From Bythopirellula sp. (lineage in GTDB: Bacteria > Planctomycetota > Planctomycetia > Pirellulales > Lacipirellulaceae): a stretch of 64,000 nt of DNA. Where the stretch lies: the NCBI GenBank assembly GCA_965216565.1, contig OZ244170.1, positions 2,496,001 through 2,560,000 on the forward strand. Direction: 5' to 3'. The position numbers and the translations under genes are program-made. The notes below the pieces were generated by a model that made no database searches, was not told the origin of the DNA, and saw only the letters and a program-made list of their open reading frames with translations. Shown one piece after another: positions 17,688-23,916 of this stretch; within the stretch, counting starts at the first letter, position 1; each line of letters starts with the position of its first letter.

Positions 17688-17955
17688 TTCTCTCGGGCCC
17701 GGCGGTCCATCGGATCGCGGCTGTTTTCCAGAGATTTAGACTTTGCTTGCTCCTTCTAAATCCCCTTTGCTGCATTCACATTCATGGTGCATGCTTCGCT
17801 ACTTCGGGGTCATTTTCGGACGCGCCAAATCGTTCCATTTACGGACAGATTTCTGACGTCAGCATGCGGCTGGTTCATTGCAATTTAGGTGACGGTTTGA
17901 GGCCGTAGGGTGGGGCGTGAGATGCAAATAGCATGTATTCCAGACTCTAGCCCCA

Positions 17956-17983
17956 ACGTCCGATAATCATAGTGGAGTATGGC
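17956..17983 (+). other. Left junction (attL-like): XerC arm + hexamer + degenerate XerD arm
   Basis: ACGTCCGATAA TCATAG TGGAGTATGGC. Confidence 0.8.
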
Positions 17984-18085
17984 GTAAGCTGGCACTCATT
18001 CTAGGTTTCTCAGACCTGGACAGGGCAGTGCGGATCAGTCCCCGTGGGCGAGTCCGCACTGCCAATTTTCTAGGAGTGCCACTAG

Positions 18086-19207
18086 ATGTTCTCTATGAAG
18101 CTCAAGGACCGCGAGTCCTGGCTTGATCCGGAGTCTGCCGGAATTTTGGGGTGGAAGTTGGGTAAGCGTCTGTGGGCCCGTTGCAAGGGCCACGAGGGAC
18201 GTTTCATCACGCTCACGTACGATCGTAAGAATTACCTAGATGCCCAAGATTGTTTCGACAAGTCCAGGGCACAGAAGCATGTCTCTCGTTTCATGCGGAA
18301 GCTAGGAGCAGCTATCAATTGCGATCTGCGTGGTAAGTGGATTTGCAAGTTGGAGTTCCAAGAGGGCGGGTGGGTCCACTGGCACATTCTGTTGCTGGAC
18401 GTTGGTTACATTCCACAGAAGATCGTTCTTGATATCTGGGGTAAGGGCTTCATCCACCTTAAGCAACTCAACGAAGCGAATGCGATGTATCTGACCAAGT
18501 ACGTTGCGAAGGACGGATCGATTCCAGGTTTCGTATATGACTATCCGTCACGGAGCATCAAGGTTGTCAGAGCGTCACTTGGTTTTTGGAACGATGAGCA
18601 GGCGAAGAGAGCGAGGGAGAAGGCGGCTAAGAGCCGTCGTTCTACTCGTGCTCAACTTATGAAGGGAGCGAAGCGGGAAGAACAGTTCTATGTTCCGGTT
18701 GGTGAGAAGCTGCGACAAGAGGCAGTGTTGTTCCGAACTGGGAGGCGAACATTCTCACTTAAGTGCTCTCGTCTTAAAGTACTGCAAGCTCTTCGTAAGT
18801 ACTGCGGACAACCCAAGGTTGAGGGAACATGGCGACACTACGCAGATGGTGATCAAGTACTGGATCGAGTGGTAGTGGAGTGTGATCCGGCGAGGACGAG
18901 CAGCGTGCGGAAGCAATCGCCCGCAGCCGGAGCAACAGCTCCGCATGACACCCGACCACTATTCTTGAAAGGAACCGGTAATCGTGTCGGATGGTGGTTG
19001 GTCCTGGTAAAGGGCAAGTATCGTACTGTTAGCCCTGCTGACATTGCTGGCAGATTGTCCAAGTGGTGGGCTAAGAATGCTCCGTGGTGGACGCTGCAGT
19101 GGATCGAGCAGGAAGCTAGATATCAGCTTGGAATGACGATGCACGGACATTGGGGTGAACCCTCGGATGCTCGTCCTAATTTGGAGAAGGCCTCATGCAA
19201 TTACTAA
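18086..19207 (+). CDS. HUH rolling-circle replication initiator (Rep), copy 1
   Basis: Motif I FITLTY, motif II HWHILL (HUH) preceded by LEFQ..G, and motif III YLTKYVAK (two tyrosines). Confidence 0.9.
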   Translation: MFSMKLKDRESWLDPESAGILGWKLGKRLWARCKGHEGRFITLTYDRKNYLDAQDCFDKSRAQKHVSRFMRKLGAAINCDLRGKWICKLEFQEGGWVHWHILLLDVGYIPQKIVLDIWGKGFIHLKQLNEANAMYLTKYVAKDGSIPGFVYDYPSRSIKVVRASLGFWNDEQAKRAREKAAKSRRSTRAQLMKGAKREEQFYVPVGEKLRQEAVLFRTGRRTFSLKCSRLKVLQALRKYCGQPKVEGTWRHYADGDQVLDRVVVECDPARTSSVRKQSPAAGATAPHDTRPLFLKGTGNRVGWWLVLVKGKYRTVSPADIAGRLSKWWAKNAPWWTLQWIEQEARYQLGMTMHGHWGEPSDARPNLEKASCNY

Positions 19208-19857
19208 CAGACATTCAACGAGATTACCTTAGCTGCATTCATTCGCAATGGGAGAGATCAGCTTTGACGTTTTGTCGTAAGAAGCTCAAGGTGTCCTCTG
19301 AATTTCTTCGGCGAGATGAGTTCGAGGAGCATTGGCAAGCTGCGATGGTTGAGATTGCGTATTTAATTCAGCGAGGCGAGTGGGACATCGTGAAGGAAGC
19401 TGAACGTGGCAATGGTCGAATTTGCTGGATAGCTTTGCAGACGTTTTATCGTTCACGGTATGAGCATAGGTATATGGAACGTGTGCTCGCTGATTCTAAT
19501 GAAGCCCTAATCTCCTTAGTTGAGTCCGAAGAACCAGTTGTTGGAGGAATTAAAGCGTCGAGAGTTGTAAACGAATTAAAGATGTTAATATCTGGTCTTC
19601 CAGAGAAGCGTCGATTGGTGATGGAGATGCTGGTTGAAGTGGTAGAAGACGCTAGATTTGATTTGGATGACATGATGCACTGCGTGAAGCTACGCATACG
19701 TGAGGGACTGTCTGAACGTGGTTATGAGTTCACGCCGATTCAAGTACAGAACGCGTTGTTCTCGGGGCGTAAGCAACTATGGGAACAACTTAGAGAACGT
19801 GGCTTGGTTTCAGGTGAAAGACCCCGCCTTGGAAGAGGTGGCGTTGGAAGTAAGTAG
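19195..19857 (+). CDS. Divergent sigma-70/ECF-like helical protein, copy 1
   Basis: Region-2-like EFEEHWQAAMVEI...WIALQTFYRSR and region-4-like LISGLPEKRRLVMEM...QVQNALFSGRKQLWEQL. It overlaps the rep stop and has GGAG upstream. The ORF is convincing; the function is inferred. Confidence 0.55.
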   Translation: MQLLTDIQRDYLSCIHSQWERSALTFCRKKLKVSSEFLRRDEFEEHWQAAMVEIAYLIQRGEWDIVKEAERGNGRICWIALQTFYRSRYEHRYMERVLADSNEALISLVESEEPVVGGIKASRVVNELKMLISGLPEKRRLVMEMLVEVVEDARFDLDDMMHCVKLRIREGLSERGYEFTPIQVQNALFSGRKQLWEQLRERGLVSGERPRLGRGGVGSK

Positions 19858-19875
19858 TTTGGTTGTTTTCGTGTA

Positions 19876-20037
19876 GTTGTTGCACACTATGGGGTTGCCG
19901 CGTGAGATCGCGAAGGCGAGGCGGCGGAAGAGTTCGGTCCGTGTACAAGGGGCATGGAGAAGCTGAGCACGCCGCCTCGCCGTTAGCGACTCGGGGCAGT
20001 CGAACGCGGCAACAGGGTCCCATAGTGTTGCAACAAC
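19876..20037. other. Long imperfect hairpin, candidate single-strand origin (copy 1; copy 2 at 22749-22910)
   Basis: Nested inverted repeats GTTGTTGCA/TGCAACAAC, CACTATGGG/CCCATAGTG, GTTGCCGCGT/ACGCGGCAAC and GGCGAGGCGGCG/CGCCGCCTCGCC. Confidence 0.7.
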
Positions 20038-20060
20038 GGTTCATTTGAAAGGAGTTTGTA

Positions 20061-20348
20061 GTGTCTAATTTGTTTGGAGTTGCTAAAGCAGGTTTTGATA
20101 TTGTTGGGGAGGTCACTGAGGAGCGTATTCTTCGAAGTACCAAGGAGTCGGCCAAGGATTGGAAACAACCTGTGTGTAAGGTAGTTACAGCCGGCTCAAC
20201 TTTAGAGGTCCAACTAACTGAAGAACAGCATTCGCAGGTGTTGGTCGGGAATGCTTACCAGTTCGTTGGCAGAATTGCTAAGGAAGGAGGGAGAATCAAC
20301 CTAGTTGTTGAAGAATTAAGGAAGCTGGCGACGCCGAAGGCGTCTTGA
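20061..20348 (+). CDS. Small beta-rich protein, probable ssDNA-binding (OB-fold) protein, copy 1
   Basis: GTG start with a strong AAAGGAG RBS; 95 aa with an alternating beta-strand pattern (FDIVGEV, VCKVVT, TLEVQL, YQFVGRI, INLVVE); located in a Rep module. Confidence 0.55.
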   Translation: MSNLFGVAKAGFDIVGEVTEERILRSTKESAKDWKQPVCKVVTAGSTLEVQLTEEQHSQVLVGNAYQFVGRIAKEGGRINLVVEELRKLATPKAS

Positions 20349-20349
20349 G

Positions 20350-20595
20350 ATGAAGATTCGACCGTACCGAAAGGATGGATATCGCCGACGTCGGCGAGTT
20401 CATGTGAGGATGGACGAATCGTTAGTAGATGCAATGGATGAGTTGGCTAGAGCACTCTCGCTGAGTCGTTCGCATCTCTGTGATCTGATTCTCGGCATAG
20501 CTGTCGAGGAGGGTGGTGAATGGTTACGGTCCGCAATCAACAAGCGTGTAAAACAGGCTCTTAATCGAAAACGTGACAGCACTTTTCAAGAATGA
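20350..20595 (+). CDS. Ribbon-helix-helix (CopG/Arc-like) DNA-binding protein, copy 1
   Basis: RVHVRMDESLVDAMDELARALSLSRSHLCDLIL fits the RHH pattern. Confidence 0.8.
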   Translation: MKIRPYRKDGYRRRRRVHVRMDESLVDAMDELARALSLSRSHLCDLILGIAVEEGGEWLRSAINKRVKQALNRKRDSTFQE

Positions 20596-20828
20596 GCTTG
20601 ATCTTTGATGATTGCTATCCGTATGATTTTGGAAGGTCGTTCGGGGTGTTCCTGAGCGCGAGAGTGTCTGAGAAATCGACGCGCATAAAATGGGCCCACA
20701 TACTCTCTGACGGGGGAACATGTGAGCCCAATGATTAAGCACGTCACTGAAAGAAATTTCACATCCAGATGACGCATCTACATGATACGAAATCGTCGCT
20801 GCAGGGCAAAGCCTATTCGGTAGCCCCA

Positions 20829-20856
20829 ACGTCCGATAATCATAGTGGAGTATGGC
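20829..20856 (+). other. Internal junction, equivalent to attP of the circular form
   Basis: ACGTCCGATAA TCATAG TGGAGTATGGC with element sequence on both sides. Confidence 0.8.
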
Positions 20857-20958
20857 GTAAGCTGGCACTCATTCTAGGTTTCTCAGACCTGGACAGGGCA
20901 GTGCGGATCAGTCCCCGTGGGCGAGTCCGCACTGCCAATTTTCTAGGAGTGCCACTAG

Positions 20959-22080
20959 ATGTTCTCTATGAAGCTCAAGGACCGCGAGTCCTGGCTTGAT
21001 CCGGAGTCTGCCGGAATTTTGGGGTGGAAGTTGGGTAAGCGTCTGTGGGCCCGTTGCAAGGGCCACGAGGGACGTTTCATCACGCTCACGTACGATCGTA
21101 AGAATTACCTAGATGCCCAAGATTGTTTCGACAAGTCCAGGGCACAGAAGCATGTCTCTCGTTTCATGCGGAAGCTAGGAGCAGCTATCAATTGCGATCT
21201 GCGTGGTAAGTGGATTTGCAAGTTGGAGTTCCAAGAGGGCGGGTGGGTCCACTGGCACATTCTGTTGCTGGACGTTGGTTACATTCCACAGAAGATCGTT
21301 CTTGATATCTGGGGTAAGGGCTTCATCCACCTTAAGCAACTCAACGAAGCGAATGCGATGTATCTGACCAAGTACGTTGCGAAGGACGGATCGATTCCAG
21401 GTTTCGTATATGACTATCCGTCACGGAGCATCAAGGTTGTCAGAGCGTCACTTGGTTTTTGGAACGATGAGCAGGCGAAGAGAGCGAGGGAGAAGGCGGC
21501 TAAGAGCCGTCGTTCTACTCGTGCTCAACTTATGAAGGGAGCGAAGCGGGAAGAACAGTTCTATGTTCCGGTTGGTGAGAAGCTGCGACAAGAGGCAGTG
21601 TTGTTCCGAACTGGGAGGCGAACATTCTCACTTAAGTGCTCTCGTCTTAAAGTACTGCAAGCTCTTCGTAAGTACTGCGGACAACCCAAGGTTGAGGGAA
21701 CATGGCGACACTACGCAGATGGTGATCAAGTACTGGATCGAGTGGTAGTGGAGTGTGATCCGGCGAGGACGAGCAGCGTGCGGAAGCAATCGCCCGCAGC
21801 CGGAGCAACAGCTCCGCATGACACCCGACCACTATTCTTGAAAGGAACCGGTAATCGTGTCGGATGGTGGTTGGTCCTGGTAAAGGGCAAGTATCGTACT
21901 GTTAGCCCTGCTGACATTGCTGGCAGATTGTCCAAGTGGTGGGCTAAGAATGCTCCGTGGTGGACGCTGCAGTGGATCGAGCAGGAAGCTAGATATCAGC
22001 TTGGAATGACGATGCACGGACATTGGGGTGAACCCTCGGATGCTCGTCCTAATTTGGAGAAGGCCTCATGCAATTACTAA
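20959..22080 (+). CDS. HUH rolling-circle Rep, copy 2
   Basis: Translation identical to 18086-19207. Confidence 0.9.
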   Translation: MFSMKLKDRESWLDPESAGILGWKLGKRLWARCKGHEGRFITLTYDRKNYLDAQDCFDKSRAQKHVSRFMRKLGAAINCDLRGKWICKLEFQEGGWVHWHILLLDVGYIPQKIVLDIWGKGFIHLKQLNEANAMYLTKYVAKDGSIPGFVYDYPSRSIKVVRASLGFWNDEQAKRAREKAAKSRRSTRAQLMKGAKREEQFYVPVGEKLRQEAVLFRTGRRTFSLKCSRLKVLQALRKYCGQPKVEGTWRHYADGDQVLDRVVVECDPARTSSVRKQSPAAGATAPHDTRPLFLKGTGNRVGWWLVLVKGKYRTVSPADIAGRLSKWWAKNAPWWTLQWIEQEARYQLGMTMHGHWGEPSDARPNLEKASCNY

Positions 22081-22730
22081 CAGACATTCAACGAGATTAC
22101 CTTAGCTGCATTCATTCGCAATGGGAGAGATCAGCTTTGACGTTTTGTCGTAAGAAGCTCAAGGTGTCCTCTGAATTTCTTCGGCGAGATGAGTTCGAGG
22201 AGCATTGGCAAGCTGCGATGGTTGAGATTGCGTATTTAATTCAGCGAGGCGAGTGGGACATCGTGAAGGAAGCTGAACGTGGCAATGGTCGAATTTGCTG
22301 GATAGCTTTGCAGACGTTTTATCGTTCACGGTATGAGCATAGGTATATGGAACGTGTGCTCGCTGATTCTAATGAAGCCCTAATCTCCTTAGTTGAGTCC
22401 GAAGAACCAGTTGTTGGAGGAATTAAAGCGTCGAGAGTTGTAAACGAATTAAAGATGTTAATATCTGGTCTTCCAGAGAAGCGTCGATTGGTGATGGAGA
22501 TGCTGGTTGAAGTGGTAGAAGACGCTAGATTTGATTTGGATGACATGATGCACTGCGTGAAGCTACGCATACGTGAGGGACTGTCTGAACGTGGTTATGA
22601 GTTCACGCCGATTCAAGTACAGAACGCGTTGTTCTCGGGGCGTAAGCAACTATGGGAACAACTTAGAGAACGTGGCTTGGTTTCAGGTGAAAGACCCCGC
22701 CTTGGAAGAGGTGGCGTTGGAAGTAAGTAG
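22068..22730 (+). CDS. Divergent sigma-70/ECF-like protein, copy 2
   Basis: Identical to 19195-19857. Confidence 0.55.
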   Translation: MQLLTDIQRDYLSCIHSQWERSALTFCRKKLKVSSEFLRRDEFEEHWQAAMVEIAYLIQRGEWDIVKEAERGNGRICWIALQTFYRSRYEHRYMERVLADSNEALISLVESEEPVVGGIKASRVVNELKMLISGLPEKRRLVMEMLVEVVEDARFDLDDMMHCVKLRIREGLSERGYEFTPIQVQNALFSGRKQLWEQLRERGLVSGERPRLGRGGVGSK

Positions 22731-22933
22731 TTTGGTTGTTTTCGTGTAGTTGTTGCACACTATGGGGTTGCCGCGTGAGATCGCGAAGGCGAGGCGGCGG
22801 AAGAGTTCGGTCCGTGTACAAGGGGCATGGAGAAGCTGAGCACGCCGCCTCGCCGTTAGCGACTCGGGGCAGTCGAACGCGGCAACAGGGTCCCATAGTG
22901 TTGCAACAACGGTTCATTTGAAAGGAGTTTGTA

Positions 22934-23221
22934 GTGTCTAATTTGTTTGGAGTTGCTAAAGCAGGTTTTGATATTGTTGGGGAGGTCACTGAGGAGCGTA
23001 TTCTTCGAAGTACCAAGGAGTCGGCCAAGGATTGGAAACAACCTGTGTGTAAGGTAGTTACAGCCGGCTCAACTTTAGAGGTCCAACTAACTGAAGAACA
23101 GCATTCGCAGGTGTTGGTCGGGAATGCTTACCAGTTCGTTGGCAGAATTGCTAAGGAAGGAGGGAGAATCAACCTAGTTGTTGAAGAATTAAGGAAGCTG
23201 GCGACGCCGAAGGCGTCTTGA
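22934..23221 (+). CDS. Probable ssDNA-binding protein, copy 2
   Basis: Identical to 20061-20348. Confidence 0.55.
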   Translation: MSNLFGVAKAGFDIVGEVTEERILRSTKESAKDWKQPVCKVVTAGSTLEVQLTEEQHSQVLVGNAYQFVGRIAKEGGRINLVVEELRKLATPKAS

Positions 23222-23222
23222 G

Positions 23223-23468
23223 ATGAAGATTCGACCGTACCGAAAGGATGGATATCGCCGACGTCGGCGAGTTCATGTGAGGATGGACGAATCGTTAGTA
23301 GATGCAATGGATGAGTTGGCTAGAGCACTCTCGCTGAGTCGTTCGCATCTCTGTGATCTGATTCTCGGCATAGCTGTCGAGGAGGGTGGTGAATGGTTAC
23401 GGTCCGCAATCAACAAGCGTGTAAAACAGGCTCTTAATCGAAAACGTGACAGCACTTTTCAAGAATGA
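23223..23468 (+). CDS. Ribbon-helix-helix protein, copy 2
   Basis: Identical to 20350-20595. Confidence 0.8.
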   Translation: MKIRPYRKDGYRRRRRVHVRMDESLVDAMDELARALSLSRSHLCDLILGIAVEEGGEWLRSAINKRVKQALNRKRDSTFQE

Positions 23469-23701
23469 GCTTGATCTTTGATGATTGCTATCCGTATGAT
23501 TTTGGAAGGTCGTTCGGGGTGTTCCTGAGCGCGAGAGTGTCTGAGAAATCGACGCGCATAAAATGGGCCCACATACTCTCTGACGGGGGAACATGTGAGC
23601 CCAATGATTAAGCACGTCACTGAAAGAAATTTCACATCCAGATGACGCATCTACATGATACGAAATCGTCGCTGCAGGGCAAAGCCTATTCGGTAGCCCC
23701 A

Positions 23702-23729
23702 ACGTCCGATAATCATAGTTATGTTCGTT
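23702..23729 (+). other. dif: Chromosome dimer resolution site dif (also attR of the element)
   Basis: ACGTCCGATAA-TCATAG-TTATGTTCGTT has the 11-6-11 layout and ATAA-N6-TTAT core of E. coli dif (GGTGCGCATAA TGTATA TTATGTTAAAT). It is intergenic, and KOPS-like octamers converge on it. Confidence 0.85.
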
Positions 23730-23916
23730 TCCGGGGCGTTTTTCCCCGGGATTTAAGCCATTGGCTCTCTCCTGCTCTGCGAAGTGTGTTCTGTGGCGGA
23801 TAGCTTGATTGGTGGAAGAAGTCGAGCTAGTCTGTCGTCTCACGGCGGCTACCAATCCCCCACAATGAATCCTCAGTTTGCCCCCCCTCTCGCCACTTCA
23901 AAAGGATGTGAATTGC

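Follow-up and report, generated by a model that had tools for sequence, protein, structure and literature searches.

The site at 20821..20856 of the window (the whole stretch of 64,000 nucleotides analyzed, corresponding to positions 2,496,001-2,560,000 of the single 5,211,746-bp contig of the source genome, G000) is best explained overall as the attP of an IMEX (a mobile element that integrates by exploiting Xer) of 2873 bp, which would recombine with the chromosomal dif as a duplex, in the manner of the Vibrio cholerae satellite phage TLC-phi; we put the probability of this reading at about 0.6. Judging from its gene content and location, the element is an IMEX: it lacks an integrase, encodes a HUH replication initiator (Rep) together with predicted OB-fold and ribbon-helix-helix (RHH) proteins, and is placed at dif.

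Two element copies, 100% identical (0 mismatches), lie head-to-tail on the plus strand, directly on the XerC side of the chromosomal dif. In the register of the repeat, the two 2873-bp units occupy 17948..20820 and 20821..23693, and the full dif, ACGTCCGATAA TCATAG TTATGTTCGTT, is located at 23702..23729 (23694-23729 with its 8-bp flank, TAGCCCCA). Because the repeat spacing is exactly 2873 bp and the copies are identical, the reported site, which reads TAGCCCCA ACGTCCGATAA TCATAG TGGAGTATGGC, is the copy-copy junction and equals a regenerated attP. The left junction, attL (17948..17983, plus strand), joins the chromosomal 8-bp flank, the chromosomal XerC arm ACGTCCGATAA and the hexamer TCATAG to the non-canonical arm of the element, TGGAGTATGGC; the arms and hexamer of this hybrid (17956-17983) are identical to those of the copy-copy junction. 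The 17-mer composed of the XerC arm and the hexamer is present in three copies in the window, at 17956, 20829 and 23702 (0.00 expected, 100 shuffles), and the stretch common to all three sites spans 26 bp, made up of the 8-bp flank, the 11-bp arm, the 6-bp hexamer and one further base, the T that opens the right arm. The GC content of the element is 50.4%, compared to 55.0% for the window, with a GC skew of about +0.2.

The comparison of 20821-20856 with 23694-23729 bears out the original prediction of an intact XerC arm and hexamer next to a XerD-side arm that is not that of dif: the right arms agree at positions 1, 5, 6 and 9 (4/11), the inner positions 2-4 are altered as well, and the inner TTAT is gone. 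The prediction that exactly one full dif is left, at the right end of the array, also held, the dif 28-mer occurring once in the 5.2-Mb genome even when as many as 6 substitutions are allowed. A 76-amino acid (aa) ORF (20769-20999) spans attP, exists only in the circular or tandem form of the element and translates the XerC arm as T-S-D-N-H; similar frames cross dif in two related genomes, G013 and G083, and the ORF is probably a spurious by-product of the conserved site.

The tandem is not an assembly artefact. In the contigs of the source-sample runs, the element forms a 2899-bp node (one unit plus 26 bp) with word depths of 36.9, against 27.8 and 18 for the flanks, and 155, against 87 and 81, which corresponds to roughly 1.6- to 1.9-fold the average of its two flanking contigs, and a 34-bp junction node (20817-20850) is present at approximately the flank depth. 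Within the limits of contig depths, which are only a rough guide to copy number, these values fit two chromosomal copies. No empty-site or free-circle joint is listed among the source-sample contigs (X4, X7), which are uninformative on excision because contigs drop rare variants.

Close strains differ in whether they carry the element. In two public runs of strains whose flanks have diverged by about 1%, contigs connect 17947 directly with 23694 and skip 5746 bp (with 26 ambiguous letters). Those strains thus carry an empty dif with the same left flank, and since the flank TAGCCCCA is contained in the empty-site contigs of related strains, it is chromosomal. In the related assembly G013, contig C80 has an empty site and contig C90 a junction of the element with dif. 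In run X1, an 81-bp contig of depth 2.7, over window positions 23700-23730, has the XerC arm preceded by another left flank (...GACTCTACCAA), so that a second strain variant of the dif flank is present in that sample.

Five independent lines of evidence, among them the uniqueness of the 28-mer and the empty site of the diverged strains described above, show that the right-hand site is the true chromosomal dif. An unbiased polarity scan of all octamers across the genome ranked GGGCAGGG/CCCTGCCC as the most polarised one. Motifs of the family to which GGGCAGGG belongs (KOPS-like) give FtsK its orientation in E. coli. To the left of the site, there are 113 plus-strand and 19 minus-strand copies of this motif, and to the right, 30 and 135, respectively, the polarity being kept in every chromosome segment. 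The last plus-strand GGGCAGGG, at genome position 2,511,857, and the first minus-strand GGGNAGGG, at 2,524,061, bracket the array at 2,513,948-2,519,729. The host encodes both recombinases, XerD at 363.9 bits (NCBIfam cut-off, 329.6) and XerC at 361.3 bits (cut-off, 335.15), as well as an FtsK whose gamma domain scores 88.8 bits. Of 41 related genomes, 25 contain a match to dif with at most 3 mismatches, among them 22 of the 24 from the same genus; each has a single match, apart from G013 with two, located on different contigs. Across all 26 matched sites, the two 11-bp arms do not vary, and the hexamer alone does. In another genus of the same family, each of the seven genomes contains one copy of dif.

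The extremes of the cumulative GC skew lie at 1.40 Mb (maximum) and 3.86 Mb (minimum), a quarter-chromosome away from dif, and thus, GC skew gives no support for the dif position, with which the KOPS-like polarity alone coincides. The polarity of GGGCAGGG switches strand at 2.51-2.52 Mb and again around 5.06 Mb, approximately a quarter of the chromosome out of phase with the GC skew, and long ORFs show no strand bias in any chromosome segment. Two DnaA-like genes are present, a full-length one at G000:C1:1752994-1754373 (357.6 bits) and a shorter one at 3867165-3868103 (188.9 bits, 348-aa frame); the latter is located at the GC-skew minimum, 3.87 Mb, and the origin inferred from KOPS, near 5.06 Mb, has neither of them. 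The genome also contains a third tyrosine recombinase resembling Xer (G000:C1:1431256-1432080; 112.9 bits to the XerD model, 343-aa frame), some 30 kb away from the GC-skew maximum. About 25 bp adjoining the XerD arm of dif on its right (23730-23760; also loci L012-L029) are conserved across the genus (T-Y-S-G-R-G ... TTTT ... GGGAAA) and can fold into a short stem-loop, CCGGGG/CCCCGG here and GAGG/CCTC in L012; this stretch may extend the functional dif region or act as a terminator.

The element carries four genes, all on the plus strand. The first one, rep (18086..19207; copy 2, 20959-22080), encodes a 373-aa protein assigned to the HUH rolling-circle replication initiators (PF23343 REP_ORF2-G2P, E 6.3e-15; phrog_942, phrog_3419). 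Residues ~20-166 of Rep are distantly related (27-36% identity) to the Rep proteins of Microviridae and small plasmids; the C-terminal ~200 residues have no match, and no close relative of Rep was found in phage or plasmid collections. These Reps of Microviridae and small rolling-circle plasmids share the HUH domain with the element Rep, but the element has no capsid gene. ORF2 (220 aa, 19195..19857; copy 2, 22068-22730) is predicted to be all-helical and matches no Pfam or PHROG family; its AF2 model, built from an alignment of 3 sequences, is of low confidence (pLDDT 55.5), too poor for a structure search. ORF3 (95 aa, 20061..20348; copy 2, 22934-23221) has a predicted OB fold (AF2 pLDDT 81.6), with Foldseek matches to the OB domains of RPA, Stn1, PriB, SSB and LysRS (E 5e-4 to 2e-3), and is likely a single-stranded-DNA-binding protein, as suggested by the model. 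ORF4 (81 aa, 20350..20595; copy 2, 23223-23468), the nearest gene upstream of attP, is predicted to be a RHH protein (PF01402 RHH_1, E 4.7e-4, at the cut-off; CopG-like Atlas clusters), not a helix-turn-helix (HTH) one, with an invariant N-terminal P-x-R-K-D-G-Y motif. Between attP and rep, there is an 11-bp inverted repeat without mismatches, GGCAGTGCGGA/TCCGCACTGCC, enclosing an 18-nt loop (20897..20936; other copy, 18024-18063; plus strand), a candidate double-strand origin or operator, at the left edge of which AGGGCRG is kept in three left ends. No recombinase or integrase was detected by Pfam and PHROGs scans among the 7 element ORFs, and DUF3653/XafT (PF12375) is absent both from the element ORFs (E up to 1) and from the six-frame translation of the genome.

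Homologs of Rep were detected in 2 of 27 genomes of the genus and 8 of 401 genomes of the order (E up to 1e-5, G000 counted). The G013 Rep is 62% identical to that of G000, and the G013 contig shows the right end of the element joined to dif; the left end (attL and the arm) is unassembled, and a DNA search of the G013 genome returned only contig C90. Two genomes of other genera in the same family, G083 and G261, encode Reps with 36-39% identity by BLASTP (38% and 37%, respectively, in the order-wide search) in elements of 4681 bp and 3204 bp, respectively, each located between a hybrid attL and a full dif. Rep, ORF3 and ORF4 (40-72% identity for the latter) are common to all four elements, and homologs of ORF2 are present in three, being absent from G013. 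The G083 element additionally contains, between ORF3/ORF4 and its right end (L052 10776-12662), ORFs of 120 aa and 71 aa (both hydrophobic), 103 aa and 258 aa, cargo without counterpart in the 2.9-kb element.

Beyond these four elements, other relatives of Rep (one Planctomycetota genome contig, L036, and six metagenome contigs; 34-44% identity) have no convincing dif-like site adjoining them, and a search of a viral-contig collection with Rep yielded nothing. Of the Planctomycetota contigs whose Rep relatives have 40% identity, L036 carries an upstream ORF of 417 aa, and in L039 a CCATACTACCCATAATGACCATG motif is repeated at a distance of 1 kb; these may represent a related replicon with a different integration system. 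A scan for the attL-like pattern ACGTCCGATAA N6 TGRAGWRTG, in a collection that did not return G083 and G261, gave three matches in genome contigs and one in viral contigs, none with dif or element proteins nearby; we attribute these to chance, having expected about 9 by our own estimate.

In all four elements, the junction lies at the hexamer of the host dif, and the XerC arms are exact. The hexamers of attL/attP and dif are identical in G000 and G261; in G083, TCGCCG in attL and TCGCTG in dif differ at position 5, on the XerD side (5/6 match), TCGCTG being the hexamer in 6 of the 7 genomes of the G083 genus. The XerD-side arms, TGGAGTATGGC (G000), TGGAGTGTGTC (G261) and TGAAGAATGTC (G083), share the consensus T-G-R-A-G-W-R-T-G-K-C, with 7 of 11 positions invariant in the three elements, compared to 2 of 11 in the next 11 bp. 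Such conservation among distant relatives indicates a selected recognition sequence rather than decay. The arm, originally described as degenerate, is not simply so, given that TGRAGWRTGKC is kept in three divergent elements, the Reps of which share only 36-40% identity.

Three classes of IMEX are tabulated in PMC4246890, and the element most closely resembles TLC-phi in its small size, rolling-circle replication module and lack of morphogenesis genes. Both have a duplex 28-bp attP with a good XerC arm, a dif-matching center and a XerD arm that deviates at 8 of 11 positions in TLC and 7 of 11 here, integrate on the XerC side, rebuild dif on the right and occur as successive or tandem copies. 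According to PMC9226527, 8 bp in TLC attP's XerD arm deviate from the canonical sequence, XerD hardly binds this arm, and integration requires XafT, with T1 and G5 of the arm weighing most in XafT-driven integration. T1 and G5 are also kept in all three known arms of the element family, and the inner TTAT is changed as in TLC. This attP design is found in G000 and G261, and G083 matches it at five of six hexamer positions. Unlike TLC, the element resides in a Planctomycete, its non-canonical arm is conserved across three divergent elements, and it lacks XafT/DUF3653 (the TLC proteins were compared by the XafT family only). In the account of PMC6744903, XafT consists of a HTH domain and DUF3653 and is reported in gamma- and beta-proteobacteria only.

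The likeness to the gonococcal genetic island (GGI), which the original prediction had placed alongside that to TLC, is weaker. Like the element, GGI resides at dif, flanked by a full dif and by a site whose XerD arm is altered, and escape from FtsK-driven excision has been proposed for it (PMC9226527). However, the GGI attP deviates at 4 positions, all in the outer 6 bp of the XerD arm, whereas in the element the inner TTAT is replaced as well; furthermore, GGI is described in the same source as unusually long for an IMEX, compared to 2.9 kb here. The earlier statements on TLC, GGI and XafT as such agree with PMC9226527 and PMC6744903 as far as these sources describe them.

With attP composed of the host XerC arm, the host hexamer and an 11-bp arm of the element, recombination gives a hybrid attL on the left and a full dif on the right. 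A second copy could enter the rebuilt dif, regenerating attP between the copies. The site architecture suggests that integration is carried out by the host XerCD without FtsK; that it proceeds as a complete, in principle reversible, FtsK-independent TLC-type reaction between duplex attP and dif strikes us as nearly an even bet. XerC would bind its normal arm, and XerD would be weakly held on the non-canonical arm through contacts with T1 and G5 and with XerC. Catalysis would be triggered by a factor other than FtsK, for which ORF4 would be the first candidate and the C-terminal region of Rep the second; an activator encoded by the element is pure inference. A complex prediction for host XerD and ORF4 scored 0.01 in both runs against a mark of 0.32, but, coming from a 4-sequence alignment without controls, counts neither way. 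Since neither attL nor attP has a proper XerD arm, FtsK moving along the converging GGGCAGGG motifs would not stop there and activate XerD; deviant XerD arms are described as escaping FtsK-driven excision (PMC9226527). Such a bypass of FtsK would spare the prophage copies from excision at each cell division. The site architecture speaks for the TLC-type reading through the identity of the hexamers in G000 and G261 and the replacement of the inner XerD arm. The G083 mismatch at hexamer position 5, which should hinder XerD-first exchange, argues mildly against it, although this could also be a later mutation.

That same mismatch is better accommodated if an IMEX with this duplex attP is integrated XerC-first, as in the VGJ phage, a route that is the main rival and that we consider possible but somewhat unlikely. 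The top strands would be exchanged at the border between the XerC arm and the hexamer, XerD would play only a structural role on its poor arm, the Holliday junction would be resolved by replication, and either no element-encoded activator of XerD would be needed or a XafV-like helper would act. In G083, the hexamer of the element stays with attL and that of the host with dif, which is the pattern of top-strand exchange at the XerC border. XafT is absent, and the XerC-first route is used by many IMEXs (PMC4246890, Table 2). A second activator, XafV of VGJ, is encoded beside attP and, as described in the 2026 preprint 10.64898/2026.06.12.731946, acts only on XerC-initiated reactions. VGJ-phi and CTX-phi also resemble the element in their location at dif, reached via host XerCD without an integrase of their own, and in the rolling-circle Rep. 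The specific likeness to VGJ is a gene adjoining attP, in VGJ that of the activator XafV (ORF136; same preprint), and that to CTX is the tandem arrangement of prophages. What counts against XerC-first integration is the center of the site: VGJ-type sites, as defined in PMC4246890, lack homology in the XerD-side part of the central region, which is 7 bp long in the VGJ attP, whereas the hexamer of the element is the same as that of dif in two of three cases, G000 and G261. Besides, the XerD-side arm, with 7 of 11 positions changed and the inner TTAT lost, is far more deviant than 'several non-canonical base pairs'.

The outer flank of the XerC arm bears on the origin of the site as well as on its recombination. 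Identity between element and cognate host extends beyond the XerC arm for 8 bp in G000, 9 bp in G013, 2 bp in G083 and 1 bp in G261; by comparison, contiguous flank identity reaches at most 6 bp in 253 host-host pairs and at most 5 bp between elements and non-cognate hosts. Among the hosts, the flank is semi-conserved, position -1 being A in all 23 sites and C occupying -2 in 19 and -9 in 22 of them (consensus C-T-A-C-C-n-n-C-A; window 17942-17955 plus 23 genomes), so that the functional XerC-side site probably extends beyond 11 bp. The lineage-specific matching is real in the two closely related pairs and missing in the other two, and could be due to capture, to co-divergence with conversion or to selection. 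Thus, the 8 shared outer base pairs noted in the original prediction stand, being lineage-specific in two of four pairs; the capture of the site from the host lineage is only one possible reading, given that flank identity fails in the remaining two pairs and that the flank is semi-conserved in hosts. The left flank was also considered as a decayed older copy of the element and rejected as such: the local alignment score of 17688-17947 was 25, with 21.3 +/- 2.2 for shuffled sequences (maximum 28).

The conserved arm and the flank identity can be combined in another reading, an improbable one in our judgment, under which the arm TGRAGWRTGKC is a docking site for an element protein and the flank identity a footprint of branch migration. 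The arm would then not be a weak XerD site but would be bound by ORF4, through its invariant P-x-RKDGY tail, or by Rep, and the bound protein would replace the XerD-DNA contacts and recruit or activate XerD (or XerC). The 8-9 bp of identity would result from Holliday-junction branch migration and mismatch correction over repeated rounds of integration and excision, through which the element and host sites would homogenise each other. If the docking-site part is true, this would be a type of DNA-bound Xer activation factor unrelated to XafT and XafV.

It is considerably harder to reconcile the data with a CTX-type process, in which the rolling-circle single strand, with attP (20823-20849) hairpinned with 20618-20647, would be recombined with dif by XerC; integration would be irreversible, and new circles would arise from rolling-circle replication across the tandem array. 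The stretch at 20618..20647 (other copy, 23491-23520; plus strand) is an imperfect inverted partial copy of the flank, XerC arm and hexamer, and its pairing with attP appears in the minimum-energy and centroid DNA folds of both strands (24 pairs, z ~ -3 in a 371-nt region), with a duplex energy of -15.2 kcal/mol, compared to -10.0 +/- 1.6 for shuffled sequences, a value reached in 4 of 500 shuffles and 6 of 300 in a second test. The HUH Rep and the OB-fold protein make a single-stranded stage likely, and the tandem arrangement is what CTX requires for production (PMC4246890). Nevertheless, when the whole element serves as the background, the pairing lacks significance (31 of 200 shuffles), and no comparable inverted copy is present in the other three elements (95/500 and 45/300 for G013, 257/300 for G083, 93/300 for G261), so that the second inverted site, which in CTX forms the folded single-stranded site together with the first, is seen weakly and in one of four members of the family. 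The hairpin itself would be interrupted by a bulge of 4 nt within the XerC arm, and its XerD side would comprise no more than 3 pairs. Moreover, the duplex hexamer of the element, TCATAG, already matches dif, unlike the dif-incompatible centers of CTX attP1 and attP2. Finally, insertion independent of Xer, by the HUH Rep or by homologous recombination via the 26-bp identity with the dif likeness a coincidental target preference, is highly implausible: in two pairs, the identity between element and chromosome does run 8-9 bp past the XerC arm, which Xer chemistry does not require, but all four elements have the junction at the host dif hexamer with exact XerC arms, the two pairs with 1-2 bp of flank identity share 18-20 bp in total, too short for RecA-type recombination, and the architecture is that of known IMEXs.

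To our knowledge, neither dif nor IMEXs have been described so far in this phylum, and a literature search found no paper uniting IMEX, Xer and Planctomyc-. In the 2011 survey, as presented in PMC3025954, no dif was predicted in the one Planctomycete genome included. A well-supported dif with converging GGGCAGGG motifs is now available for a family of Planctomycetales. As far as can be judged from the sequences, the elements found there constitute a new IMEX gene family of TLC-like site design in a new phylum. With its 2.9 kb, four genes and natural relatives with empty sites, the element offers a compact experimental system. The conservation of the arm in three divergent elements turns what had been termed a degenerate arm into a testable recognition sequence. 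The TLC-like non-canonical XerD arm thus occurs far outside proteobacteria, without XafT, which leaves two options for these bacteria: XerC-first integration is enough, or there is another Xer activator of an unrelated kind.
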